Below, one piece after another: positions 1 to 12,551 of a stretch of 64,000 nt of DNA. Source of the stretch: Escherichia coli (lineage in GTDB: Bacteria > Pseudomonadota > Gammaproteobacteria > Enterobacterales > Enterobacteriaceae); NCBI RefSeq assembly GCF_046105845.1, contig NZ_CP151004.1; one strand, 5' to 3'. The translations under genes and the position numbers were made by a program. Position 1 is the first letter of the stretch. Every line of letters begins with the position of its first letter. The notes under the pieces were generated by a model. The model ran no database searches. It was not told where the DNA came from and was given only the letters and a program-made list of their open reading frames with translations.

Positions 1-273
1 GGCGACAAACGCTGTAATTACCAGCGCCGGAACAGGGCCAGGCATTTTTTTTGCTGTTTTCACCTGATTTCGTTCAATTGTTTTATGTAAGGATTTTCCC
101 ATCAACGGTAATTTTGTCACTGCACGACCGACATTTCCGGCCTGTTTTCCTAAATGAACTCTTTCGGCTGCACCATATTTTTCGACAACGGTAATGAGAT
201 GTTCACACACCGTTGACTTGCCTGAACCATCGCTACCAATAACGGCAATTAATGGAGGTGTTATTGACTGCAT
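1..273 (-). CDS. yghT: P-loop NTPase (nucleotide-kinase-like), N-terminal part; gene continues beyond window start
   Basis: Minus-strand ATG at 273..271 preceded by AAGGA SD; translation [22 protein letters not shown]... carries a Walker A motif paralogous to the two downstream ORFs; position matches K-12 gene order (recalled). Confidence 0.7.
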
Positions 274-446
274 GAATATATCCTTTAATTTAAATATCCA
301 TTAAAAATATTTATTTGGTTAATATGTTTTTATGAAAGCGTAATTCAGGTCAATGTCACAATTAACCATTGTCACAATAAGGTTGAACGGATATTCTGAG
401 CACGGACCACGTAATATTCAATACATTATTTGCTGCCGGGTTTTTC

Positions 447-1160
447 GTGAATCAACGTAATATGTCAATAATTAATTCCACGCCAGTGCGTGTTATTGCC
501 ATTGTAGGATGTGATGGTTCAGGTAAATCGACCCTCACGGCAAGCCTGGTAAATGAACTGGCAGCAAGAATGCCAACAGAACACATTTATCTCGGGCAAT
601 CGTCCGGGCGAATTGGCGAATGGATTTCACAGCTCCCTGTTATTGGCGCACCTTTTGGGCGTTATTTGCGAAGTAAAGCGGCACATGTGCACGAAAAGCC
701 CTCAACACCGCCTGGCAATATTACTGCTCTGGTTATCTATCTGCTTTCCTGCTGGCGGGCGTACAAGTTTCGCAAAATGTTGTGTAAAAGCCAGCAAGGC
801 TTTCTGCTCATCACCGACCGCTACCCGCAGGTTGAAGTGCCGGGTTTTCGCTTTGATGGCCCGCAATTGGCAAAAACCACGGGCGGTAACGGTTGGATAA
901 AAATGTTAAGGCAGCGCGAGCTGAAGCTGTACCAATGGATGGCATCTTATTTGCCCGTATTGTTGATTCGTCTTGGCATTGATGAACAAACGGCGTTTGC
1001 GCGTAAACCTGACCACCAACTGGCAGCGTTACAGGAAAAAATCGCCGTTACGCCGCAACTGACATTCAATGGTGCAAAGATCCTTGAACTGGATGGTCGG
1101 CAACCAGCCGATGAAATTCTGCAAGCGTCACTACGCGCAATTCACGCCGCGCTTTCCTGA
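447..1160 (+). CDS. yghS: P-loop NTPase, nucleotide-kinase-like (237 aa)
   Basis: ORF track; Walker A GCDGSGKST near N-terminus, DRYP motif; paralog of neighbours; GTG start at 447 (alternative ATG at 462). Confidence 0.75.
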   Translation: MNQRNMSIINSTPVRVIAIVGCDGSGKSTLTASLVNELAARMPTEHIYLGQSSGRIGEWISQLPVIGAPFGRYLRSKAAHVHEKPSTPPGNITALVIYLLSCWRAYKFRKMLCKSQQGFLLITDRYPQVEVPGFRFDGPQLAKTTGGNGWIKMLRQRELKLYQWMASYLPVLLIRLGIDEQTAFARKPDHQLAALQEKIAVTPQLTFNGAKILELDGRQPADEILQASLRAIHAALS

Positions 1161-1191
1161 TCACCAAAATGGATAGGGGATGATTTAACGA

Positions 1192-1950
1192 ATGGATGCA
1201 CTACAAACACAAACTGTTATTAGTACAACCGCGCCGCAGCCCAGCTACATTCCGGGGCTAATTGCGGTGGTCGGGTGTGATGGCACCGGTAAATCCACAC
1301 TGACCACCGACCTGGTGAAATCGCTGCAACAACACTGGCAAACCGAGCGGCGCTATCTGGGGCTGCTCTCCGGCGAAGACGGCGACAAAATCAAACGATT
1401 GCCGTTGGTTGGCGTCTGGCTGGAACGGCGACTGGCGGCCAAATCCTCGAAAACCCAAAGCATGAAAACCAAATCTCCTGCGCTATGGGCGGCGGTGATT
1501 ATGTACTGCTTCTCGCTGCGAAGAATGGCGAATCTACGCAAGGTTCAGCGACTGGCGCAAAGTGGCGTTCTGGTGGTCAGCGATCGCTTCCCGCAGGCTG
1601 AAATTTCGGGCTTTTATTATGACGGACCGGGGATTGGCGTCGAACGTGCGACCGGGAAAATCAGCATGTTTCTGGCGCAGCGCGAACGGCGTTTATACCA
1701 ACAAATGGCGCAATACCGTCCTGAATTAATCATTCGTTTGGGGATTGATATTGATACTGCCATCTCCCGCAAGCCTGACCATGACTATGCCGAGCTGCAG
1801 GACAAAATCGGTGTTATGTCGACGATTGGCTATAACGGCACAAAAATTCTTGAGATTGATTCCAGAGCGCCCTACAGCGAAGTGCTGGAACAGGCACAGA
1901 AGGCGGTTTCTCTGGTTGCCATCGTTTCTGACCGCCGAAGTTTAACTTAA
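1192..1950 (+). CDS. yghR: P-loop NTPase, nucleotide-kinase-like (252 aa)
   Basis: ORF track; Walker A GCDGTGKST, DRFP motif; paralog of yghS/yghT. Confidence 0.75.
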   Translation: MDALQTQTVISTTAPQPSYIPGLIAVVGCDGTGKSTLTTDLVKSLQQHWQTERRYLGLLSGEDGDKIKRLPLVGVWLERRLAAKSSKTQSMKTKSPALWAAVIMYCFSLRRMANLRKVQRLAQSGVLVVSDRFPQAEISGFYYDGPGIGVERATGKISMFLAQRERRLYQQMAQYRPELIIRLGIDIDTAISRKPDHDYAELQDKIGVMSTIGYNGTKILEIDSRAPYSEVLEQAQKAVSLVAIVSDRRSLT

Positions 1951-1995
1951 GGCTGGCGGGATACTTTTTACTATCAACGATAAGGTCAGGCTGAA

Positions 1996-3345
1996 TTGGC
2001 GGGTTTTAACATCAAACATTGGTTTGCAGATGGCGCGTTTCGCACCATTATTCGCAATAGCGCCTGGTTAGGCTCCAGTAATGTCGTGAGCGCCTTGCTG
2101 GGTCTGTTGGCGCTCTCGTGTGCCGGTAAAGGGATGACGCCCGCCATGTTTGGCGTACTGGTGATTGTGCAATCGTACGCCAAGTCGATCAGCGATTTTA
2201 TTAAGTTTCAGACATGGCAGCTGGTGGTTCAGTACGGAACACCAGCATTAACCAACAATAATCCGCAGCAATTCCGCAATGTCGTCTCATTTTCCTTCTC
2301 GCTGGATATCGTCAGCGGCGCGGTGGCGATTGTCGGCGGCATTGCCTTACTCCCTTTTCTTTCCCATTCATTAGGTCTGGATGACCAAAGCTTTTGGCTG
2401 GCGGCGCTGTATTGCACGCTCATTCCTTCAATGGCTTCCTCCACGCCGACCGGCATTCTGCGTGCGGTAGATCGCTTCGATTTAATTGCTGTACAGCAGG
2501 CGACGAAACCTTTTCTGCGCGCAGCGGGGAGCGTCGTAGCCTGGTATTTTGACTTTGGTTTTGCGGGCTTTGTTATTGCCTGGTACGTGTCGAATCTGGT
2601 TGGCGGCACCATGTACTGGTGGTTTGCCGTGCGCGAATTACGCTGCAGAAATATCCATAACGCCTTCAAATTGAATCTGTTTGAGTCTGCCCGACACATT
2701 AAAGGCGCGTGGAGTTTTGTCTGGTCAACCAACATTGCCCACTCCATCTGGTCGGCACGTAACTCGTGCAGCACAGTGTTGGTGGGGATCGTGTTAGGAC
2801 CCGCTGCCGCCGGGTTATTTAAAATCGCCATGACATTCTTCGACGCCGCCGGAACGCCAGCGGGTTTACTGGGTAAAAGTTTTTACCCAGAGGTGATGCG
2901 TTTAGATCCGCGCACCACCAGACCGTGGTTGTTAGGCGTGAAGTCAGGTTTACTGGCGGGCGGAATCGGTATTCTGGTGGCGCTCGCGGTGTTGATCGTC
3001 GGCAAGCCGCTCATTTCGCTGGTGTTTGGCGTTAAGTATCTCGAAGCGTATGACCTGATTCAGGTGATGCTGGGCGCAATTGTGATTTCGATGCTGGGCT
3101 TCCCACAGGAGTCATTGCTATTGATGGCGGGAAAACAGCGTGCTTTTCTCGTGGCGCAAACCATCGCCTCAATCGGCTACATCGTATTGCTGTTCATGTT
3201 CTGTCATCTGTTTGGCGTGCTGGGGGCTGCATTTGCTTACTTCGCTGGGCAATGTCTGGATGTGGTGCTCTCGCTAATTCCAACCTTAAAGGCATTTTTT
3301 CAGCGCCATTCCTTGCTTTATAACGCAGCCGGAGAGAAATCCTGA
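1996..3345 (+). CDS. yghQ: Polytopic membrane protein, Wzx/MOP-type polysaccharide or lipid flippase-like (start uncertain, TTG at 1996)
   Basis: 449-aa ORF, highly hydrophobic with multiple predicted TM segments; position after yghR as in K-12 (recalled). Confidence 0.65.
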   Translation: MAGFNIKHWFADGAFRTIIRNSAWLGSSNVVSALLGLLALSCAGKGMTPAMFGVLVIVQSYAKSISDFIKFQTWQLVVQYGTPALTNNNPQQFRNVVSFSFSLDIVSGAVAIVGGIALLPFLSHSLGLDDQSFWLAALYCTLIPSMASSTPTGILRAVDRFDLIAVQQATKPFLRAAGSVVAWYFDFGFAGFVIAWYVSNLVGGTMYWWFAVRELRCRNIHNAFKLNLFESARHIKGAWSFVWSTNIAHSIWSARNSCSTVLVGIVLGPAAAGLFKIAMTFFDAAGTPAGLLGKSFYPEVMRLDPRTTRPWLLGVKSGLLAGGIGILVALAVLIVGKPLISLVFGVKYLEAYDLIQVMLGAIVISMLGFPQESLLLMAGKQRAFLVAQTIASIGYIVLLFMFCHLFGVLGAAFAYFAGQCLDVVLSLIPTLKAFFQRHSLLYNAAGEKS

Positions 3346-4169
3346 TGATGAGAAAATATTTCCCGCTTGAGGCTAGCGAGCGTCTATTTGTTGCGATTGA
3401 AGAAGATGATGTCGTTGATGCACAGGTCAGTTTGCCGCCGACTATCGCACTAAGTTGTACCACCGAAATCATCCATGATAATTACGCGTTATGCCTGAAA
3501 TTCTGGCTGGATGGTGTTAATCGTCAGGAGCTACTGCGTTTAATCCGCAAACAGGCGAAAGGCGATGAGCTGACGACAGACGAGCGCAAAAAGTATAAAT
3601 ACATGCGAGCGCGCTACAAGCACCTGCGTTTTGCGCAACGGCTGTATTTAAAGAAGCATCAGGCCGGATTTTTATTCGGCAAAACGACCGTTTTTTTGGG
3701 GCGTTTTCAGGACGGCTTTCGTAACGGTAAGAAAAATATTGTGTCGTATTACGGCAACCTGTTACGGGTTTATTTAAGCTCTTCGGTCTGGTCGTTGGTG
3801 AACTATTCATTACGCCATAGCCAGTTAGAAAGCGTAAGCGGTTTTATTGCCTATCGGCAAAAGCAAATGCATACCCTGAAAGAGATAATTGCCAAACCGC
3901 GACTAACTGGCAGGGAATTTCATGATGTGCGAAAAATCATCAGCCAGCAGGTTTCTTATTACGACACCCTAAGATCGCTTGATCCTGAAAATAAAGAGGC
4001 GTTACAGATTTCCCGCTTCCTCGCCGCCATTAATGGCCTGATGGGGGATAAACACGACGACATGGTGGCGGATGATATGGAAAACCGCCAGTCGTATGAT
4101 GCACCGGTGGCGCTGGATAGCGATATTCGCCAGCGCTTAGAGCTGCTGATTTCGCGTTTTCCGCTATAA
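3345..4169 (+). CDS. Hypothetical soluble protein (274 aa), basic, no recognisable motif
   Basis: ORF track; ATG overlaps yghQ stop (TGATG) suggesting translational coupling. Confidence 0.6.
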   Translation: MMRKYFPLEASERLFVAIEEDDVVDAQVSLPPTIALSCTTEIIHDNYALCLKFWLDGVNRQELLRLIRKQAKGDELTTDERKKYKYMRARYKHLRFAQRLYLKKHQAGFLFGKTTVFLGRFQDGFRNGKKNIVSYYGNLLRVYLSSSVWSLVNYSLRHSQLESVSGFIAYRQKQMHTLKEIIAKPRLTGREFHDVRKIISQQVSYYDTLRSLDPENKEALQISRFLAAINGLMGDKHDDMVADDMENRQSYDAPVALDSDIRQRLELLISRFPL

Positions 4170-4177
4170 CCGGAGCA

Positions 4178-4741
4178 ATGATGTCATCTCGTTTGATTAT
4201 TGCGCTGATTATCATGCTCTTAGCCCCGGGTGTGCAGGCACACAATTTCGTCACTGGCAAAACGGTTACCCCCGTTTATATCCAGGAAGGCGGTGAGTTG
4301 CTTCTGAATAGCGACGACGAAATTCACTACCAAAAGTGGAACAGCACACAGCTGGCGGGAAAAGTCCGCATTATTCAGTATATCGCCGGGCGTAAGTCGG
4401 CGAAGAAAAAGAACTCACTGTTAATTAAAGCGGTTGAAGCGGCAAACTTTCCGCAGGATCGTTTTCAGCCCACCACCATTGTGAACACCGATGATGCCAT
4501 CTTTGGTACTGGCTATTTTGTCGTTGGCAAAATCGAAAAAAATAAACGCCGCTATCCGTGGGCGCAATTCGTTATTGACGGCAATGGACTGGGACGCGTT
4601 GCCTGGCGGTTGCCGGAGCAGAGTTCAACCATTCTGGTGCTGAATAAAGACGGGCAAATTCAGTGGGCAAAGGACGGCAGCCTGACGCCGGAAGAGGTAG
4701 ATCATGTCATTGCGCTGGCGCAGAAACTGATCAATGAATAA
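4178..4741 (+). CDS. Secreted/periplasmic protein, YtfJ-like (187 aa)
   Basis: N-terminal signal peptide MMSSRLIIALIIMLLAPGVQA; overall similarity to the YtfJ periplasmic family as I recall it. Confidence 0.6.
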   Translation: MMSSRLIIALIIMLLAPGVQAHNFVTGKTVTPVYIQEGGELLLNSDDEIHYQKWNSTQLAGKVRIIQYIAGRKSAKKKNSLLIKAVEAANFPQDRFQPTTIVNTDDAIFGTGYFVVGKIEKNKRRYPWAQFVIDGNGLGRVAWRLPEQSSTILVLNKDGQIQWAKDGSLTPEEVDHVIALAQKLINE

Positions 4742-4771
4742 AAAATTCAAAGGATTGAGGGCGTTAGTGAG

Positions 4772-5842
4772 ATGAAGCTGGTTGAACACTACATCATGCG
4801 TGGTACGCGCCGTCTGGTGTTGATTATCGTCGGTTTTCTGATCTTTATTTTCGCCAGCTACTCCGCACAGCGTTATCTGGCCGAAGCGGCAAATGGGACA
4901 TTAGCTCTTGATGTTGTGCTGGATATCGTTTTCTACAAAGTGCTGATTGCACTGGAGATGCTGTTACCTGTTGGACTATATGCTTCAGTTGGCGTGACGC
5001 TAGGGCAAATGTATACCGACTCGGAAATTACCGCTATCTCCGCGGCGGGGGGCAGTCCGGGACGCTTGTACAAAGCCGTTCTTTATCTGGCGATACCGCT
5101 AAGTATTTTTGTCACCCTTCTGTCGATGTATGGTCGTCCGTGGGCTTATGCGCAGATTTATCAATTGGAGCAACAGTCACAGTCGGAGCTGGATGTTCGC
5201 CAGTTGCGGGCAAAGAAATTTAACACTAACGATAACGGACGAATGATCCTTTCGCAGACGGTTGATCAGGATAATAATCGCCTGACTGACGCGCTGATTT
5301 ATACTTCTACTGCCAATCGAACCCGCATTTTCCGCGCCCGTTCGGTTGATGTGGTTGACCCATCACCTGAGAAACCGACTGTTATGTTGCACAACGGCAC
5401 TGCCTATCTTCTCGATCATCAGGGGCGTGACGACAACGAACAGATCTACCGTAATCTGCAATTACATCTGAATCCGCTGGATCAAAGCCCTAACGTCAAA
5501 CGCAAAGCGAAATCGGTCACGGAGCTGGCGCGCTCCGTCTTTCCAGCCGATCATGCCGAACTGCAATGGCGACAAAGCCGTGGCCTGACAGCATTGTTGA
5601 TGGCGCTGCTGGCCATTTCATTAAGTCGGGTAAAACCGCGGCAAGGGCGATTTTCAACATTATTGCCACTGACGTTGCTGTTTATTGCCATTTTTTATGG
5701 CGGCGACGTCTGCCGTACGCTGGTGGCTAACGGCGCGATTCCCCTCATTCCTGGTTTGTGGTTAGTACCCGGACTCATGCTAATGGGCCTGCTGATGCTG
5801 GTCGCACGCGACTTCTCTTTGCTGCAGAAATTTTCCCGATGA
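4772..5842 (+). CDS. LptF-like permease (YjgP/YjgQ family) paralog
   Basis: 356-aa membrane protein; N-terminal TM block, central periplasmic domain, C-terminal TM block; conserved SEITAI motif as in LptF/LptG. Confidence 0.7.
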   Translation: MKLVEHYIMRGTRRLVLIIVGFLIFIFASYSAQRYLAEAANGTLALDVVLDIVFYKVLIALEMLLPVGLYASVGVTLGQMYTDSEITAISAAGGSPGRLYKAVLYLAIPLSIFVTLLSMYGRPWAYAQIYQLEQQSQSELDVRQLRAKKFNTNDNGRMILSQTVDQDNNRLTDALIYTSTANRTRIFRARSVDVVDPSPEKPTVMLHNGTAYLLDHQGRDDNEQIYRNLQLHLNPLDQSPNVKRKAKSVTELARSVFPADHAELQWRQSRGLTALLMALLAISLSRVKPRQGRFSTLLPLTLLFIAIFYGGDVCRTLVANGAIPLIPGLWLVPGLMLMGLLMLVARDFSLLQKFSR

Positions 5843-6918
5843 ATGTTTTCAGTCGCTATTTAATCCGTCATCTCTTTCTCGGTTTTGCCGCCGCCGCAGG
5901 ATTATTGCTGCCGCTTTTTACCACCTTCAACCTGATTAACGAACTGGATGATGTCAGCCCGGGCGGTTATCGCTGGACTCAGGCGGTGCTGGTGGTGCTG
6001 ATGACCTTACCGCGCACACTGGTCGAACTTTCGCCGTTTATCGCATTATTGGGAGGGATTGTTGGCCTGGGGCAGTTATCGAAAAACAGTGAGCTTACCG
6101 CTATTCGCAGCACTGGGTTTTCTATCTTCCGTATTGCACTGGTGGCGCTGGTTGCCGGGATATTGTGGACTGTTTCGTTAGGCGCGATAGATGAGTGGGT
6201 GGCGTCGCCATTGCAGCAACAGGCGCTGCAAATCAAATCGACTGCCACCGCGTTGGGGGAGGACGATGACATTACCGGCAATATGCTTTGGGCCAGGCGC
6301 GGTAATGAATTTGTGACGGTGAAATCGCTGAACGAGCAGGGCCAGCCTGTGGGCGTGGAGATATTTCATTATCGCGACGATCTCTCGCTCGAATCCTACA
6401 TTTTTGCACGCAGTGCCACCATTGAAGACGACAAAACGTGGATCCTGCATGGTGTGAATCATAAAAAATGGTTGAATGGCAAAGAAACGCTGGAAACATC
6501 AGATAATCTTGCCTGGCAATCGGCCTTCACCAGTATGGATCTTGAAGAGTTATCGATGCCGGGGAATACTTTTTCTGTCCGTCAGCTTAATCATTACATC
6601 CATTATTTGCAGGAAACCGGGCAACCCAGCAGCGATTACCGCCTTGCACTGTGGGAAAAACTGGGGCAACCCATCTTAACTCTGGCGATGATTTTGCTGG
6701 CTGTGCCGTTTACCTTTAGTGCCCCGCGTTCGCCTGGGATGGGTAGCCGTCTCGCTGTAGGCGTCATCGTGGGCTTACTCACCTGGATCAGCTATCAAAT
6801 CATGGTCAATCTGGGATTGCTATTTGCGTTGAGCGCACCTGTTACCGCGCTCGGTTTACCGATAGCGTTTGTGCTGGTGGCGTTGAGCCTGGTGTATTGG
6901 TATGACAGTCAACATTAA
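5839..6918 (+). CDS. LptG-like permease (YjgP/YjgQ family) paralog
   Basis: ATG at 5839 overlaps upstream stop (ATGA); MNVFSRYLIRH... with SELTAI motif; same topology as LptG. Confidence 0.7.
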   Translation: MNVFSRYLIRHLFLGFAAAAGLLLPLFTTFNLINELDDVSPGGYRWTQAVLVVLMTLPRTLVELSPFIALLGGIVGLGQLSKNSELTAIRSTGFSIFRIALVALVAGILWTVSLGAIDEWVASPLQQQALQIKSTATALGEDDDITGNMLWARRGNEFVTVKSLNEQGQPVGVEIFHYRDDLSLESYIFARSATIEDDKTWILHGVNHKKWLNGKETLETSDNLAWQSAFTSMDLEELSMPGNTFSVRQLNHYIHYLQETGQPSSDYRLALWEKLGQPILTLAMILLAVPFTFSAPRSPGMGSRLAVGVIVGLLTWISYQIMVNLGLLFALSAPVTALGLPIAFVLVALSLVYWYDSQH

Positions 6919-6952
6919 ACCCGCCGTGGCGCAGCACCACAGCGGGCTCACA

Positions 6953-8125
6953 TTACTGCTTCAGAGTAGCAAATGCCTGAATGATGGCATCGATTTGCTC
7001 ACGACTGTGGGCAGCGTTTACGCTACAGCGCAGCAGCGTGATGCCTGCAGGCGCGGCAGGTGGCAGGATAAGATTCACATAAACGCCCAGCGAAATAAGC
7101 TCGCGCCAGATGCGTAAACCTTCCTCTTTCGAACCGATTATTACTGGCACTACCGGGCTAATATGTGAACTTAACTCGTAACCCAGTTTTTGCAGACCGT
7201 CATACAGATGGTTGGCGTTATCCATCAGCTTTTGCCGCAGCTCTGGTTGTGAGGCAATGGTTCTTAACGACGAGCGCACGGTCGCAATGCAGGACGGAGA
7301 AGGAGAGGCGGTAAAAATATACGGGCGGCTGCCGTAGCGCAGCACTTCCATCGCTTCCGAACCGACAGCAAAACCGCCAATCGAGGCCAGACTTTTACTG
7401 AAAGTACCAACGATAATATCCACATCATCTTCAACGCCAACGGCTTCAGCCAGTCCGCGCCCCATTGCGCCTAACACGCCAAACGAATGCGCTTCATCGA
7501 CAATCAAATAACCACCGAGACGACGTTTGATATCAACAATTTCCGCTAACGGCGCAACGTCACCGAGCATGCTGTAGATACCCTCAACGATGATAATCGC
7601 CTCTTTCGCCCGTTCACCGAGGCGAACCATGCGCCGTTCCAGATCTTTAGCATCGTTATGGCGGAAACGAATAATTTCCGCGCCACCGAGAGAACAGGCG
7701 TCATAAATACTGGCGTGGCTGTCGGCATCCAGTAACACCACGGCGTTATGGTCGGCAAGTGCGCTGATGACGCCTAAATTAGCGGTATAACCGGTTGAAA
7801 AAACGATAGCGGTAGGGCGATTAAAAAACTCGGCGATCTCTTTCTCTAACGCCAGATGCGGCGCATAACTGCCGTTTGCCATACGAGAACCGGTGGTGCC
7901 GGTGCCTTGGGCCGCTAACGCTGCCTGACCTTCGGCGATGGCATCATGATTGAAGGTTAATCCGAGATAATTATTGGTCCCGGCCAGAATCACTTTTTTA
8001 TTGCCGATCCGACCTTCGGTGGCGGAATACACTTCATCAATACAGGTACCAAACGGCGTTAACCCGTTGTCACTAAATTGCAGTCGCTCGCCAGCAAGGC
8101 GCGCATATTTATCGTATAGCCCCAT
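6953..8125 (-). CDS. PLP-dependent alpha-oxoamine synthase (serine palmitoyltransferase / BioF / Kbl family), 390 aa
   Basis: Motifs NNYLGL, GTFSKSL (PLP-lysine), DEAHSFG; start ATG overlaps upstream ACP stop (TAATG). Confidence 0.8.
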   Translation of the reverse strand: MGLYDKYARLAGERLQFSDNGLTPFGTCIDEVYSATEGRIGNKKVILAGTNNYLGLTFNHDAIAEGQAALAAQGTGTTGSRMANGSYAPHLALEKEIAEFFNRPTAIVFSTGYTANLGVISALADHNAVVLLDADSHASIYDACSLGGAEIIRFRHNDAKDLERRMVRLGERAKEAIIIVEGIYSMLGDVAPLAEIVDIKRRLGGYLIVDEAHSFGVLGAMGRGLAEAVGVEDDVDIIVGTFSKSLASIGGFAVGSEAMEVLRYGSRPYIFTASPSPSCIATVRSSLRTIASQPELRQKLMDNANHLYDGLQKLGYELSSHISPVVPVIIGSKEEGLRIWRELISLGVYVNLILPPAAPAGITLLRCSVNAAHSREQIDAIIQAFATLKQ

Positions 8126-8373
8126 TATTTATTCTCCAGCCATGGAAGTAGTGTTTCCATTAATTGCGCAGGGGTTTTGACATCCAGCAGAATATTAATA
8201 GGAATGGAAATATCGAATCTGTCTTCCAGCATCATTAAGAGATCCATCACTTTGATCGACTCCAGGCCAAGATCGTTGACGAGATCGCTGTCGGGCTTAA
8301 TTTCCACACCGTTTTCGACCAAATCCTGTAAACAGGAAAGGATGTAATCCATTACTATTTCACGATTTACCAT
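8125..8373 (-). CDS. Acyl carrier protein (82 aa)
   Basis: DLGLESIKVMDL phosphopantetheine-attachment motif; small acidic protein. Confidence 0.8.
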   Translation of the reverse strand: MVNREIVMDYILSCLQDLVENGVEIKPDSDLVNDLGLESIKVMDLLMMLEDRFDISIPINILLDVKTPAQLMETLLPWLENK

Positions 8374-8404
8374 AGAAACGTTAACACACCTTTAAACAAG
8401 ACAA

Positions 8405-9319
8405 TCAAAATAGCCCGTTGCGTAATGCGTGTTCCAGGCTAATCCCGGGAAACCAATTAATATCTTCAGAAATACGGTTATTACTTGCCGACCAGTCGGC
8501 ATGAGTTAATTCACGGATTTTCGAACGAGTCAGCATCGGTTCTTTACCCGCCAGACGGCTCAACGCGGTACTGATATCCGCAAGGCAGGTGAGTAGCGAC
8601 AGAGGAATACCGACCATCCGCACGGAACCACAACGGGCGTCGGCGGCAAGCTGTCTTACGCGTTGCCAGTCATAGCCGCCGGCGACGCCATCGCATAATT
8701 CATAGGTTTGCGTCTGTACAGTTTCGGCGCTTAACCACTGCCCCACGGCTTGCGCGAAATCGGTGACGTGCAGGAAAGAGAGCTGTGTCTCTGGCGCACC
8801 AAGTCGTGGCAGCAGGCCGCGCAGCATCCAGTCAAACAGCGGTTTTAACTCTTTATCGCCGGGACCATACACGGCTGTCGGGCGAAAAACGCCCAGCGTA
8901 ATTTCATCAGCCATTGCAGTCAGCCGTTGTTCGGCGACGTGTTTGGAATTTGCGTACCAGGAGAGTTCGGGATGGCGCGCCGCCAGCGAAGAGATAAACA
9001 GAAAACGTTGGCAAAAGCCGCTCTCTTTTGCCGCTTGCATCAGTCGCAGGCTGCCGTCAACGTTACAGCGGGTAAAAATCTCTTCTTTGTGCCCGCGCAC
9101 TTGCCCGGCGCAATGGACCACCGCGCTGGCTCCGGCAACCAGTTCGCTAAGTGAATGAGTATCTTCCAGAGAACCGCGCACCCAGATGAGATTGTCATTG
9201 ACGTGAGCGCGGGCAGTACGCGTCAATGTGCGAACGTGAAAGCCGCGGGCGAGCAGGTTATCGATAATATATTTACCGATAAACCCGGTAGCGCCCGTCA
9301 CCGCGACAGTTTGATTCAT
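8405..9319 (-). CDS. NAD(P)-dependent epimerase/dehydratase-family reductase (SDR fold), ~304 aa
   Basis: Rossmann motif VAVTGATGFIGKYII just after ATG at 9319; ATG overlaps upstream stop (ATGA); longer ORF-track start at 9529 rejected. Confidence 0.7.
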   Translation of the reverse strand: MNQTVAVTGATGFIGKYIIDNLLARGFHVRTLTRTARAHVNDNLIWVRGSLEDTHSLSELVAGASAVVHCAGQVRGHKEEIFTRCNVDGSLRLMQAAKESGFCQRFLFISSLAARHPELSWYANSKHVAEQRLTAMADEITLGVFRPTAVYGPGDKELKPLFDWMLRGLLPRLGAPETQLSFLHVTDFAQAVGQWLSAETVQTQTYELCDGVAGGYDWQRVRQLAADARCGSVRMVGIPLSLLTCLADISTALSRLAGKEPMLTRSKIRELTHADWSASNNRISEDINWFPGISLEHALRNGLF

Positions 9320-11037
9320 GCCAGGGATTCCTGCACATGAAGGCTTGCAGCATAAGCCTTCTGATAACGTTTTTTCGCTTCCGCACGGGCAGGCTTGCCG
9401 GAGGACGTTCGGGGAATACTGTGGGGCGGCAACAGATCGATAGCCGCTGTTACGCCAAATTCGCTTTGGATCCGTGCTACCAGCGCGTGGATAAGCTGCC
9501 CACGACGTTCTTCGTCGCTGATCCGACACTGGATCTGCAAAATGATTTTTTCCTGGGCGGTAACAAAAGCAATCGCATCGCCAGAATGAATTTCCGGTTC
9601 CTGTTCCGCAATATATTCAATATCCTGCGGCCAGATATTACGGCCACGAATAATAATCAGATCTTTAATGCGCCCGGTGACATACAGATAACCGTCCAGC
9701 AGATAACCGAGGTCGCCGGTGTCTAACCAGCCCGTCGCGGCAATCTCGTCTTGTGAAATCTGGTCGCCAAAGTAACCGCTCATCAGGCTAGGGCCGGAGA
9801 TGCAAATATGGCCTACCACACGTTCCGCGGCAGGTATACCTGCTTCATTGCGGATTTCAATGCCATGTTCTGGCAACGCTTTACCGCAGTTGACGAAAGT
9901 CGATACGGCGCGTGTTTCAGCACCCGGCGCGACGGCTTTGCCCTGATATTCAAGGATGTCGCGATCCACTTCGTTAACCACAACCCCGGAGGCTTCATCA
10001 GAGAAGCTGACAGCCAGCGCATTTTCTGCCAGTCCGTAGCACGGCATGAACGTTTTATCGTCAAAGTTAACCTGACGGAAACATTCAGCGAATTGATGGA
10101 GTTGTTCTGCGGAGATCGGCTCAGCACCAATACCAGCGACGCGCCAGCAGGATAGATCCAGTTCAGCGAGATCTTTTTCATTCACGCGGCGCTGGCACAA
10201 TTCATAGCCAAACGGCGGCGCAACGGAAACGGTGCCGCGATTTTTACTGATCAATTTAAGCCATTGCAGAGGACGCATGGCAAAATCCTGAGTGCGCAAA
10301 TAATCTACTGAGAGCTGCGTGGCGACGGGGGTCAGGAGAAAGCCGACCAGTCCCATATCATGGTAGAAAGGCAGCCAGGAGACGCAGCGGTCGCCAGGGC
10401 GTAATTTAATGCCATCGTGGCTTATAGCACGTAGATTAGCCATCACTTCGCGATGGGTGATAATGACGCCACGGGGAAAACGGGTGCTGCCGGAGGTGTA
10501 CTGGAGGTAGGCGATATCGTTCGGAACTGGATGCTGGAGTGCAACATCGGCTTCCGGTAATGCCTTAAACCAGGCGTGGCTTAAAACATGTAATTCGGGG
10601 TTGTTATGCGTAGCGGCATTGACCAGTGGCAACCACTCATCACCAGTGATAATGGCTGCGGGCTGGCAACTTGTCAGTAAACCCTGCAGTTTGGCGCTCC
10701 AGGAATCCCGCTGACCGACGCCCATTGGAATCGCCAACGGGACGGCGACTAAGCCGGCATACTGGCAGGAAAAAAAAGCCTCTACGAACCCGCTACTGGT
10801 TTCGGCAATCAGCGCCACGCGATCGCCTTTTTTCAGGTTCAGCGATAACAACCGCTTCGCACCAGCTTCGGCACGCGCTTTTAACGTCTGATATTCCAGT
10901 TGATCTTCAAGTTGGCAACGTCTGTCATAAAAATTCATTCCGGCGCTACTCAGAGCGGCGTAGTCCAAAGCATCAACCAGCGTTGGAAAATCGGCATAGC
11001 GCATAGGTAGGGAATGCGTAAAGATTTTATTAGACAT
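9316..11037 (-). CDS. Fatty acyl-AMP ligase / acyl-ACP synthetase (AMP-binding superfamily), ~573 aa
   Basis: AMP-binding signature YTSGSTRFPRGV; N-terminus MSNKIFTHSLPMRYADF typical of FAAL-type enzymes; ATG at 11037. Confidence 0.75.
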   Translation of the reverse strand: MSNKIFTHSLPMRYADFPTLVDALDYAALSSAGMNFYDRRCQLEDQLEYQTLKARAEAGAKRLLSLNLKKGDRVALIAETSSGFVEAFFSCQYAGLVAVPLAIPMGVGQRDSWSAKLQGLLTSCQPAAIITGDEWLPLVNAATHNNPELHVLSHAWFKALPEADVALQHPVPNDIAYLQYTSGSTRFPRGVIITHREVMANLRAISHDGIKLRPGDRCVSWLPFYHDMGLVGFLLTPVATQLSVDYLRTQDFAMRPLQWLKLISKNRGTVSVAPPFGYELCQRRVNEKDLAELDLSCWRVAGIGAEPISAEQLHQFAECFRQVNFDDKTFMPCYGLAENALAVSFSDEASGVVVNEVDRDILEYQGKAVAPGAETRAVSTFVNCGKALPEHGIEIRNEAGIPAAERVVGHICISGPSLMSGYFGDQISQDEIAATGWLDTGDLGYLLDGYLYVTGRIKDLIIIRGRNIWPQDIEYIAEQEPEIHSGDAIAFVTAQEKIILQIQCRISDEERRGQLIHALVARIQSEFGVTAAIDLLPPHSIPRTSSGKPARAEAKKRYQKAYAASLHVQESLA

Positions 11038-11408
11038 ATACACCACGAAAAAATTGGATATCAAAAATAAAATGACAATAATGCGGTGGATTATATAGGC
11101 ATAAAAGATAAATGAGATAGTATTTTCATCAGTGTGAAAATGAACATTGATTTAAATAATGAGTTTGAGTTTTTTTGTTTTTATTGTGAATGATATTTAA
11201 TTTATGAATATATTAAGAATAAGCCTTGTCCGGTCGCCTTAAATCGACAAAAGGCATTGTGGCGCTTCTGTGTAGTCTCTAACCTTATCGTAATCATTAA
11301 TAAATACTATTTATTCGTCGTTTGTATTCATTGGGTTGATTATTAAGGTGCCGTTCGTTGCTGTTGCAACCTGTTTGTCACCGTTAATTATTTGTTACCC
11401 ACAGAACT
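11038..11408. promoter_or_regulatory. AT-rich divergent intergenic region between the FAAL operon and yghO (promoters inferred, not mapped)
   Basis: 371 bp with long A/T runs between divergently oriented start codons. Confidence 0.4.
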
Positions 11409-12551
11409 ATGGAATGCGATCTGCTGATGATTAAAATTGAAAAAGTAATTAATAAAAATGACCTTAAGGCATTTATCGCTTTTCCGTCATCACTTTATCC
11501 CGACGATCCAAACTGGATACCCCCTTTATTCATTGAACGCAACGAGCATTTGTCTGCGAAAAATCCGGGGACGGACCATATCATCTGGCAGGCGTGGGTG
11601 GCAAAAAAAGCGGGGCAGATAGTTGGGCGTATTACCGTGCAAATAGATACCTTGCACCGCGAGCGTTACGGTGAAGATACCGGTCATTTCGGCATGATTG
11701 ACGCCATTGATGATCCGCAGGTTTTTGCCGCGTTGTTTGGCGCAGCGGAAGCGTGGTTGAAGTCACAAGGTGCAAGTAAGATCAGCGGTCCTTTCAGCCT
11801 GAATATCAATCAGGAAAGCGGATTACTGATTGAAGGTTTCGATACACCACCCTGTGCGATGATGCCGCACGGTAAACCGTGGTATGCCGCGCATATTGAA
11901 CAATTGGGTTATCACAAAGGCATTGATTTACTAGCGTGGTGGATGCAGCGAACCGATCTCACTTTCTCTCCGGCGCTAAAAAAACTGATGGATCAGGTGC
12001 GTAAGAAGGTGACCATTCGCTGCATCAATCGCCAGCGGTTTGCCGAAGAGATGCAGATCCTGCGTGAGATTTTCAACTCTGGCTGGCAGCACAACTGGGG
12101 ATTTGTGCCGTTTACCGAACATGAATTCGCGACTATGGGCGATCAACTTAAATATCTGGTGCCGGACGATATGATCTACATCGCTGAGATTGATTCTGCA
12201 CCCTGCGCGTTTATTGTTGGCTTGCCAAACATCAACGAGGCGATTGCCGATCTGAACGGATCGCTCTTTCCCTTCGGCTGGGCAAAATTGCTGTGGCGTT
12301 TAAAAGTCAGCGGTGTGCGTACTGCGCGAGTACCGCTGATGGGCGTGCGGGACGAGTATCAGTTTAGCCGCATCGGCCCGGTGATTGCGCTGTTATTGAT
12401 TGAAGCCTTACGCGATCCGTTTGCCCGCCGGAAGATCGATGCGCTGGAAATGTCATGGATCCTCGAAACCAATACAGGCATGAATAACATGCTGGAACGC
12501 ATTGGGGCAGAGCCGTACAAGCGTTACCGATTGTATGAAAAGCAGATTTGA
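11409..12551 (+). CDS. yghO: YghO-like protein (380 aa), candidate acyltransferase; function unverified
   Basis: ORF track; position between lipid operon and glcC as for K-12 yghO (recalled); no motif I can assign confidently. Confidence 0.6.
   Translation: MECDLLMIKIEKVINKNDLKAFIAFPSSLYPDDPNWIPPLFIERNEHLSAKNPGTDHIIWQAWVAKKAGQIVGRITVQIDTLHRERYGEDTGHFGMIDAIDDPQVFAALFGAAEAWLKSQGASKISGPFSLNINQESGLLIEGFDTPPCAMMPHGKPWYAAHIEQLGYHKGIDLLAWWMQRTDLTFSPALKKLMDQVRKKVTIRCINRQRFAEEMQILREIFNSGWQHNWGFVPFTEHEFATMGDQLKYLVPDDMIYIAEIDSAPCAFIVGLPNINEAIADLNGSLFPFGWAKLLWRLKVSGVRTARVPLMGVRDEYQFSRIGPVIALLLIEALRDPFARRKIDALEMSWILETNTGMNNMLERIGAEPYKRYRLYEKQI

Follow-up and report, generated by a model that had tools for sequence, protein, structure and literature searches.

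The window analyzed here, a stretch of 64,000 nucleotides of Escherichia coli DNA (contig NZ_CP151004.1 of assembly GCF_046105845.1), opens with yghT, yghS and yghR, three genes encoding P-loop proteins with a thymidylate kinase (TMPK)-like fold. These proteins represent three classes which recur together, one gene of each, in many bacteria, and this triad very likely belongs to a sphingolipid module. Tentatively, we suggest that it transfers phosphate to the head group of the lipid, possibly with a helical protein encoded nearby as a partner.

YghT, YghS and YghR are paralogs at a level far above chance. Over about 220 compared residues, YghS and YghR are 44.5% identical (E 6e-63), YghT and YghS 36.9% (E 4e-54), and YghT and YghR 33.6% (E 2e-47). 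The full YghT protein (230 amino acids) was taken from the best complete-genome match, L001:13581-14273 (99.1% identical, E. coli). Each protein has a Walker A motif, GSDGSGKS in YghT (residue 13), GCDGSGKS in YghS and GCDGTGKS in YghR, and a second motif, DRYP in YghT (residue 113) and YghS (residue 124) and DRFP in YghR (residue 131). The initial annotation of the window had recognized three P-loop paralogs with yghT in divergent orientation, and this description was borne out. It had also placed DR(Y/F)P in all three; the reading was correct for YghS and YghR, whereas the DRYP of YghT lies outside the window and could not be read there. We agree with its view that these are not ABC ATPases: the ABC signature, sought as [LYF]SGG[QEMK] (LSGGQ type), occurred in none of YghT, YghS and YghR, and matches to ABC families covered the P-loop only. 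No fold or profile match to zeta toxins, ParA-type NTPases or defense proteins, an unrelated NTPase class having been its alternative, was obtained. Membership in a defense system was considered separately and rejected, as PADLOC gave noise only.

Similarity to TMPK, which had likewise been noticed from the sequence, was confirmed by profile comparison. Searches of Pfam, NCBIfam and PDB with single sequences gave only P-loop-level or sub-threshold TMPK matches (E 0.013 for Pfam Thymidylate_kin). Significance was reached only with a family profile of 55 sequences (A2), which matched TMPKs at E values on the order of 1e-11 to 1e-7, namely those of P. falciparum (1e-11), A. aeolicus (6e-10), T. 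maritima (5.5e-9) and S. aureus (4e-7), and the triad has the TMPK/nucleoside monophosphate (NMP) kinase fold with P-loop and DRx motif. The family is large, comprising 2149 representative clusters at a threshold of E <= 1e-3, of which 141 remain at E <= 1e-30. A transmembrane-like segment was seen in 3 of 21 homologs with N-terminal extensions; this signal is weak and was not used as evidence of membrane anchoring. RefSeq names yghS and yghT 'dTMP kinase'. However, the three proteins scored 24.4, 30.9 and 25.4 bits with the equivalog model TIGR00041, against a curated cutoff of 83.25. This name is unsupported because the scores fall below NCBI's own cutoff, and it is probably wrong. The essential tmk gene of E. 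coli is encoded elsewhere, and YghT, YghS and YghR are almost certainly not Tmk. Judged by their motifs, all three appear to be catalytically intact members of a distinct branch of the dTMP kinase superfamily.

To define the classes, kinase open reading frames (ORFs) in 79 loci (78 from a scan of one genome per species, and one Acetobacteraceae locus) were assigned to T, S or R by their best E. coli paralog. Of the 79 loci, 53 contained a single gene of each class, mostly in the order T(-) S(+) R(+), with median score margins over the second-best paralog of 81-111 bits, and the divergent T(-)/S(+) layout was kept in most loci. The local triplication first proposed is therefore not what happened; the genes form an ancient triad of three orthologous classes. 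Conservation was assessed in 65 T, 75 S and 69 R sequences. The Walker A Lys, the P-loop Asp, D124-R125-x-P-Q, D137, E158 and R186-K-P-D-H were each kept in at least 95% of the sequences of every class, and R125, the Arg of the DRx motif, was present in all of them (65/65 T, 75/75 S, 69/69 R). Thus, by its motifs no class seems to resemble a dead regulatory subunit. R104, which is 99% conserved in all three classes, aligned in HMMER with the Arg of the TMPK motif F-S-A-N-R. In TMPK structures, the Arg of FSANR contacts the acceptor phosphate. The position of the TMPK base-stacking Phe, as judged from the alignment only, is Phe in 65/65 T and Leu in 71/75 S sequences and is mixed in R, and the T class has an extra run of arginines on the helix bearing this position. 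Because this aligned residue varies by class, the paralogs probably differ in the acceptor pocket.

It is possible to view such proteins as kinases of nucleoside mono- or diphosphates that feed an activated donor of the head group (CDP-X, for example), or as spare thymidylate kinases. The RefSeq names of yghS and yghT, the TMPK fold, the DRY motif, the acceptor Arg and the Phe retained by the T class at the aligned base-stacking position are all compatible with this. We nevertheless consider it extremely unlikely, given the scores far below the curated dTMPK cutoff, the lack of a nucleotidyltransferase in the E. coli locus and the separate tmk; to our knowledge, three dedicated NMP kinases would also be unprecedented.

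Natural fusions join members of different classes, S-like with R-like (P0121) and T-like with R- or S-like (P0028, P0122 and P0123), and suggest that T, S and R act together. Other fusions link the kinase to a MOP flippase (P0214 and P0268) or to a GT4 glycosyltransferase (P0250). In addition, a distant subfamily of ~500 amino acids combines a YghS-like kinase with an N-domain of ~260 amino acids which contains S-x12-DxD, looks nucleotidyltransferase-like by eye and had no Pfam match. In L081:5721-9482, a member of this subfamily is translationally coupled to a Polysacc_synt flippase, followed by a 249-amino-acid protein (faint AAA_33 P-loop match in Pfam, not picked up by tblastn as related to YghS), GT4 and Wzy, and preceded by an ATP-sulfurylase and a sulfotransferase.

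Genomic linkage and the CHAD-like partner

Genes within 10 kb of the kinases were counted in the 79 loci. The most frequent neighbors were YghQ (54 loci), a 274-amino-acid protein (51), Spt (45), AcpR (44), CerR (43) and AasR (39), followed by YtfJ (32), LptF2/G2 (29) and YghO (25). The lipid operon that the initial annotation had seen next to the kinases is therefore real, as spt, acpR, cerR, aasR and yghO are responsible for ceramide synthesis, and the co-inheritance which it had asked about is strong and is kept well beyond E. coli. Linkage to spt outlasted many rearrangements, being found in Enterobacterales, Xanthomonadales, Halomonadaceae (Carnimonas), Rhodocyclaceae, Gallionellaceae, Methylotenera and Aeromonadales. 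Outside Enterobacterales, a typical compact cluster has the order PAP2 - PAP2 - T(-) - 274-amino-acid protein - S - R - LpxO-like hydroxylase - DUF2147 - YghQ(-) - Spt - AcpR - CerR - AasR - YghO. In Sphingomonadales and Acetobacteraceae, the triad occurred with YghQ and the 274-amino-acid gene, and spt was not nearby. Such loci in Sphingomonadales fit the observation that the sphingolipid genes of this order are scattered over the genome (PMC11324152). We are thus confident that the triad is part of a sphingolipid module.

Several less frequent neighbors were also detected, including two groups of PAP2 phosphatases (17 and 8 loci), an LpxO-like Asp/Asn hydroxylase (18 loci), a PEMT/ICMT-type methyltransferase (15 loci) and DUF2147 (9 loci). 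A Nudix hydrolase lies next to PAP2 and a yghT-like gene in three gammaproteobacterial loci (L041:6789-7511, L046:6843-7418 and L054:6985-7524), which have YghQ and LptF2/G2 and no spt within 10 kb. In a Myxococcales metagenome-assembled genome, the LptF and LptG paralogs are fused into one protein of 760 amino acids next to the kinase genes (L058:10684-12966).

Separate lipid kinases are encoded next to the triad in approximately 20 loci. A DgkA-type (DAGK_prokar) paralog of 119 amino acids lies beside yghO in 16 enterobacterial loci, though not in E. coli; it was seen in Serratia, Rosenbergiella, Pantoea and others (L012, L015, L018 and L019, in the last at 2004-2363) and may be a ceramide kinase dedicated to these loci. 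In four distant loci, YghS/YghR genes are adjoined by a gene for a GGDG/YegS-like (CpgB-type) lipid kinase (Table 1). The separate lipid kinases speak against the view that the triad simply carries out the first phosphorylation of ceramide.

The MOP flippase YghQ could instead be the true partner of the kinases, with ceramide genes adjacent for secondary reasons; the triad would then modify a Wzx-flipped, undecaprenyl-linked glycan by phosphorylating the polysaccharide or the carrier lipid. The flippase and GT4 fusions described above point in this direction, as do GT4 genes inside some triad clusters and the occurrence of distant family members in Wzx/Wzy/GT4 loci, with sulfation genes in L081. 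However, among close relatives the triad sits between ceramide genes in many gene orders, and neither a glycosyltransferase nor Wzy is encoded in the locus of E. coli. A candidate flippase is also present in the sphingolipid loci of Caulobacter (PMC11324152), and a role in glycan modification appears very unlikely.

The 274-amino-acid protein, annotated as hypothetical, had no match in Pfam (PF05235 included), NCBIfam or PDB, the last searched with a family profile. Its predicted structure consists of two four-helix bundles with pseudo-twofold symmetry, and structure comparison placed CHAD proteins closest, the next-ranked matches being generic four-helix bundles with ~107 residues aligned. 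Foldseek gave a weaker indication, with CHAD in second place (probability 0.97, E 0.15, TM 0.47). Residues R60, R88, K92, H93, R95, H105, H193, R196 and H237 are invariant in the family. The isoelectric point (pI) of the protein is 9.4, and that of the triad and this protein together ranges from 9.4 to 9.9. CHAD domains were described as modules that bind polyphosphate specifically, in which two four-helix bundles carry basic patches that are conserved (PMC6537752). A relationship of the 274-amino-acid protein to the N-domain of the ~500-amino-acid fusions or to the linker of the flippase-kinase fusions was examined and rejected (hhalign probability <1%).

In archaea, PPK3 is a heteromeric polyphosphate kinase formed by two dTMPK-like paralogs whose genes share an operon with that of a CHAD protein; in Sulfolobus acidocaldarius, these are Saci_2019/Saci_2020 and Saci_2021, respectively (PMC12995831). 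In the locus of E. coli, the pairing of dTMPK-like paralogs with a CHAD-like protein matches this operon, and the proteins might thus be a bacterial PPK3-like polyphosphate kinase or polyphosphate-dependent nucleotide kinase acting on free polyphosphate and not on a lipid, for instance to provide ATP locally or to store phosphate for envelope lipid export. Basic proteins, and the Nudix hydrolase beside the triad in three loci, are in agreement with such a role. However, PPX, SixA and Pst were absent from the recurrent neighbors and from the annotated ORFs of representative loci, where the triad is instead tightly linked to lipid, flippase and PAP2 genes. Every subunit keeps the DRx Arg, unlike the regulatory subunit of PPK3 (rPPK3), and there is no special sequence affinity to the catalytic subunit (cPPK3). 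E. coli already has PPK1 and PPX. An enzyme of free polyphosphate is, in our view, quite unlikely.

A candidate head-group phosphotransfer module

We propose that the triad, the CHAD-fold protein and YghQ constitute a cytoplasmic head-group module in a beta- and gammaproteobacterial type of sphingolipid locus. The reading that we favor, at somewhat below even confidence, is that the triad serves as a head-group phosphotransfer module, either as a hetero-oligomer or in sequential reactions, with an acceptor which is already phosphorylated. That it carries out phosphoanhydride or oligophosphate chemistry is suggested with appreciable doubt. Several features speak for phosphate-rich chemistry, including the CHAD-fold partner, the high pI values, the PAP2 phosphatases and the PEMT/ICMT-type methyltransferase.

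The analysis shows the paralogy and fold of the three proteins, their conserved motifs, the linkage of the genes and the fusions; which substrate is used, in what order the steps occur and whether a complex forms is what we infer, and the pathway could be as follows. Spt, AcpR, CerR, AasR and YghO would synthesize ceramide, which would be converted to ceramide-1-phosphate by a DgkA- or CpgB-type kinase. In E. coli this kinase might be the housekeeping enzyme, and in other loci a dedicated paralog. The triad would then use ATP to phosphorylate a phosphate-bearing acceptor, most plausibly ceramide-1-phosphate, by phosphoanhydride chemistry of the NMP kinase/PPK3 type, and would generate a pyro- or oligophosphate head group that may be glycosylated in some taxa. 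The basic CHAD-like protein might bind this head group, and YghQ might flip the lipid across the inner membrane. In the periplasm, PAP2 phosphatases could trim the head group in taxa that encode them, after which LptB with LptF2/G2 would extract the lipid for the outer membrane.

Alternatively, the three proteins may be plain lipid kinases that have distinct targets among the hydroxyls of ceramide or the sphingoid base (C1-OH, C3-OH or the acyl 2-/3-OH), and may yield a multiply phosphorylated, lipid-A-like anionic ceramide without phosphoanhydride bonds. Linkage to ceramide genes is consistent with this, and the compact beta/gamma clusters have no other obvious head-group enzyme beyond the kinases and PAP2. 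The LpxO-like hydroxylase of 18 loci would create an extra acyl hydroxyl, a general base could be provided by the invariant residues D137 and E158, and such members of the fold as dNK and the shikimate, gluconate and chloramphenicol kinases phosphorylate hydroxyls. On the other hand, the Arg aligned with the acceptor-phosphate residue of TMPK is nearly invariant in all classes, DgkA- or CpgB-type kinases coexist with the triad, and the CHAD-fold partner would be left unexplained. Because of this Arg, the separate lipid kinases, the CHAD partner and the PPK3 precedent, transfer to a phosphorylated acceptor is preferred over phosphorylation of hydroxyls, which we regard as rather doubtful.

A number of observations weigh against phosphotransfer to a phosphorylated head group. 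The acidic D137 and E158 could be the general base for a hydroxyl acceptor, and family members that are more distant lie in Wzx/Wzy polysaccharide loci which have no spt. The set of 79 loci consists of the closest relatives of YghS, with approximately 35 from Enterobacterales, and its members are phylogenetically non-independent. The parallel with PPK3 is also imperfect: there are three paralogs versus two, rPPK3 lost the DRx Arg and no class of the triad did, PPX and SixA genes are not nearby, and with the A2 profile the cPPK3 homolog 2plr reached 29 bits compared to 33-48 bits for canonical TMPKs (48 for the P. falciparum enzyme). Finally, a search of the literature outside subscription journals turned up neither a sphingolipid of E. 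coli nor the head group of one, and likewise no data from biochemistry or lipid analysis.

If the favored reading is extended, E. coli, many beta- and gammaproteobacteria, Sphingomonadales and Acetobacteraceae might produce a lipid anchored by ceramide and bearing pyro-, oligo- or polyphosphate, which a three-subunit, all-active relative of PPK3 and a CHAD-type chain binder would build, a MOP flippase would flip and LptB-LptF2G2 would deliver to the surface. We consider this unlikely. If true, such a lipid would add a new class to the anionic lipids of the outer membrane and offer a way to expose polyphosphate on the surface; anionic lipids of the outer membrane bear on virulence and on how cells respond to polymyxin (sensitivity) and detergents (resistance).

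For E. coli, the ceramide genes and the Lpt paralogs are already published, as is a drawing of the UTI89 operon (bioRxiv 10.64898/2026.04.12.717747, a 2026 preprint). According to the same preprint, sphingolipid export in Caulobacter depends on the LptF2/G2 homologs, which employ LptB. In the above literature search, no paper was found which ties yghR, yghS, yghT or the 274-amino-acid protein to sphingolipids, CHAD or PPK3. What appears to be new is a putative TMPK-derived, multi-paralog phosphotransferase with a CHAD partner in a lipid context. The initial annotation, which had suggested small-molecule or lipid kinases, did not cover the CHAD-fold protein, YghQ, the separate DgkA/CpgB-type kinases, the acceptor Arg and the PPK3 precedent. 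The kinase triad and the CHAD-fold protein are a concrete candidate for the chemistry of the sphingolipid head group, and this chemistry would differ from the ceramide-phosphoglycerate pathway of Caulobacter.

The locus in E. coli

The genes of the locus are listed in Table 1. Those for YghQ, the 274-amino-acid protein, the YtfJ-family protein, LptF2 and LptG2 follow yghR with intergenic gaps of -4 to 45 bp. A description of the E. coli B genes for ceramide synthesis is available, and aca (ECD_02850) was found to be needed for dihydroceramide synthesis (PMC9386255).

Table 1. Coordinates of genes and other features, given in the window unless a locus (L) is named
Feature	Position	Strand	Remarks
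yghT	1..272	-	T-class paralog; ATG at 272-270; cut by the window edge, codons 1-90 only
yghT/yghS intergenic region	273..446	.	divergent, AT-rich, 174 bp; presumed home of both promoters
yghS	447..1160	+	complete, 237 amino acids; S-class TMPK-fold kinase paralog
yghR	1192..1950	+	complete, 252 amino acids; R-class TMPK-fold kinase paralog; 31 bp past yghS
yghQ	1996..3345	+	MOP (Wzx-like) flippase; 45 bp past yghR; NCBIfam MOP flippase E 8e-9
gene of the 274-amino-acid 'hypothetical' protein	3345..4169	+	start overlaps the yghQ stop; CHAD-like fold of two four-helix bundles, basic pI
gene of YtfJ-family periplasmic protein	4178..4741	+	TIGR01626, 215 bits versus cutoff of 151
lptF2 (LptF paralog)	4772..5842	+	TIGR04407, 317 bits
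lptG2 (LptG paralog)	5839..6918	+	TIGR04408, 306 bits
spt, serine palmitoyltransferase	6953..8125	-	RefSeq annotation; E. coli B ortholog ECD_02854 (PMC9386255)
acpR, specialized acyl carrier protein	8125..8373	-	RefSeq annotation and PMC9386255
cerR/epi, NAD(P)-dependent reductase of ceramide synthesis	8405..9319	-	RefSeq annotation and PMC9386255
aasR, acyl-ACP synthetase (fatty acyl-AMP ligase)	9316..11037	-	mechanical ORF reaches 11064
yghO, acyl-CoA N-acyltransferase ('aca')	11409..12551	+	ECD_02850, 'aca' in PMC9386255
GGDG/YegS-like kinase genes	L044:2670-3809, L014:8816-9877, L061:13253-14239, L079:15128-16159		beside YghS/YghR genes
IS5 replacement	L084 (E. coli CM13, K-12-like) 2296-4525		window ~3060-11400

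Positions 1-500 of the window, which span the yghT/yghS intergenic region, have a GC content of 0.386, and one sigma-70-like site lies in this region (369-397, + strand). However, scans for promoters and terminators gave site totals no higher than in shuffled sequence and are therefore uninformative. The divergent aasR and yghO genes are separated by a long intergenic region (11038-11408) with a strong AT bias (GC 0.31 in 11001-11500), which is likely a regulated divergent promoter region. For lptG2, the mechanical ORF starts at GTG 5758 (386 amino acids, 85-bp overlap with lptF2), whereas RefSeq and the NCBIfam match favor the start at 5839 (359 amino acids, 4-bp overlap).

We also determined the distribution of the block in 5426 complete E. 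coli genomes, where carriage was defined as at least 80% of a segment and the block was counted if found in one place. The kinase segment (window 1-2100) was present in 4610 genomes, the ceramide/Lpt part in 4068 and the whole 13.5-kb block in 4043 (~75%). Approximately 570 complete genomes had the kinases without the full ceramide block. In K-12-type strains, the insertion sequence IS5 replaces the region from the 3' end of yghQ through aasR. The truncated yghQ, yghR, yghS and yghT of K-12 are remnants of a sphingolipid locus left after this IS5-associated deletion. These are long-standing y-genes of K-12, where they are seemingly functionless, and the remnant nature of the locus accounts for K-12 screens without a phenotype for them.

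Comparison with known systems

Canonical Tmk (TIGR00041/PF02223) shares with the triad the GxDGxGKST P-loop, DR(Y/F), the acceptor-phosphate Arg of 'S-x-x-R' and the adenine-side Arg. The triad differs from Tmk in ~40 extra residues between strands 2 and 3, long helices, a pI near 9.8, the family-specific invariant DGP, E158 and RKPDH, and its genomic context of envelope lipids.

For the 274-amino-acid protein, the closest relatives are CHAD proteins (PF05235; RcCHAD 6qv5, CtCHAD 3e0s and PptA 6rn5). Like these, it is all-helical with two four-helix bundles, has approximately 280 residues, many invariant Arg, Lys and His and a basic pI, and is encoded beside TMPK-fold phosphotransferases. Unlike these, it has no sequence-level match to Pfam CHAD or PDB, and Foldseek support is weak.

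CpgB (CCNA_01218), the ceramide kinase of Caulobacter (PMC10331486), is the functional slot that the initial annotation had in mind. Like the triad, it is a cytoplasmic kinase in a bacterial sphingolipid locus, where it starts the anionic head group. We considered the triad as a CpgB homolog and rejected this, as CpgB has a DAGK/LCB5 catalytic domain with GGDG and is not a P-loop protein. In four loci, CpgB-like genes coexist with the triad, and thus the two are not simple substitutes. PPK2 is a P-loop kinase with a TMPK-like core which handles a polyanionic phosphate chain, and two-domain fused forms of it exist.

The triad is most readily compared with PPK3. In both cases, paralogs of the dTMPK fold lie side by side with a CHAD or CHAD-like gene, canonical Tmk is encoded elsewhere, and proteins or clefts are basic; moreover, the structural match 2plr is a homolog of cPPK3. 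A hetero-oligomer was demonstrated for PPK3, whereas for the triad it is suggested by natural fusions. The settings are different, as E. coli has PPK1 and the triad is surrounded by sphingolipid synthesis genes, a flippase, Lpt paralogs and PAP2. Through this comparison, bacterial sphingolipids are connected with a type of TMPK-derived phosphotransferase, that of PPK3, which was found recently, and PPK3 may illustrate how the triad works rather than the family to which it belongs.

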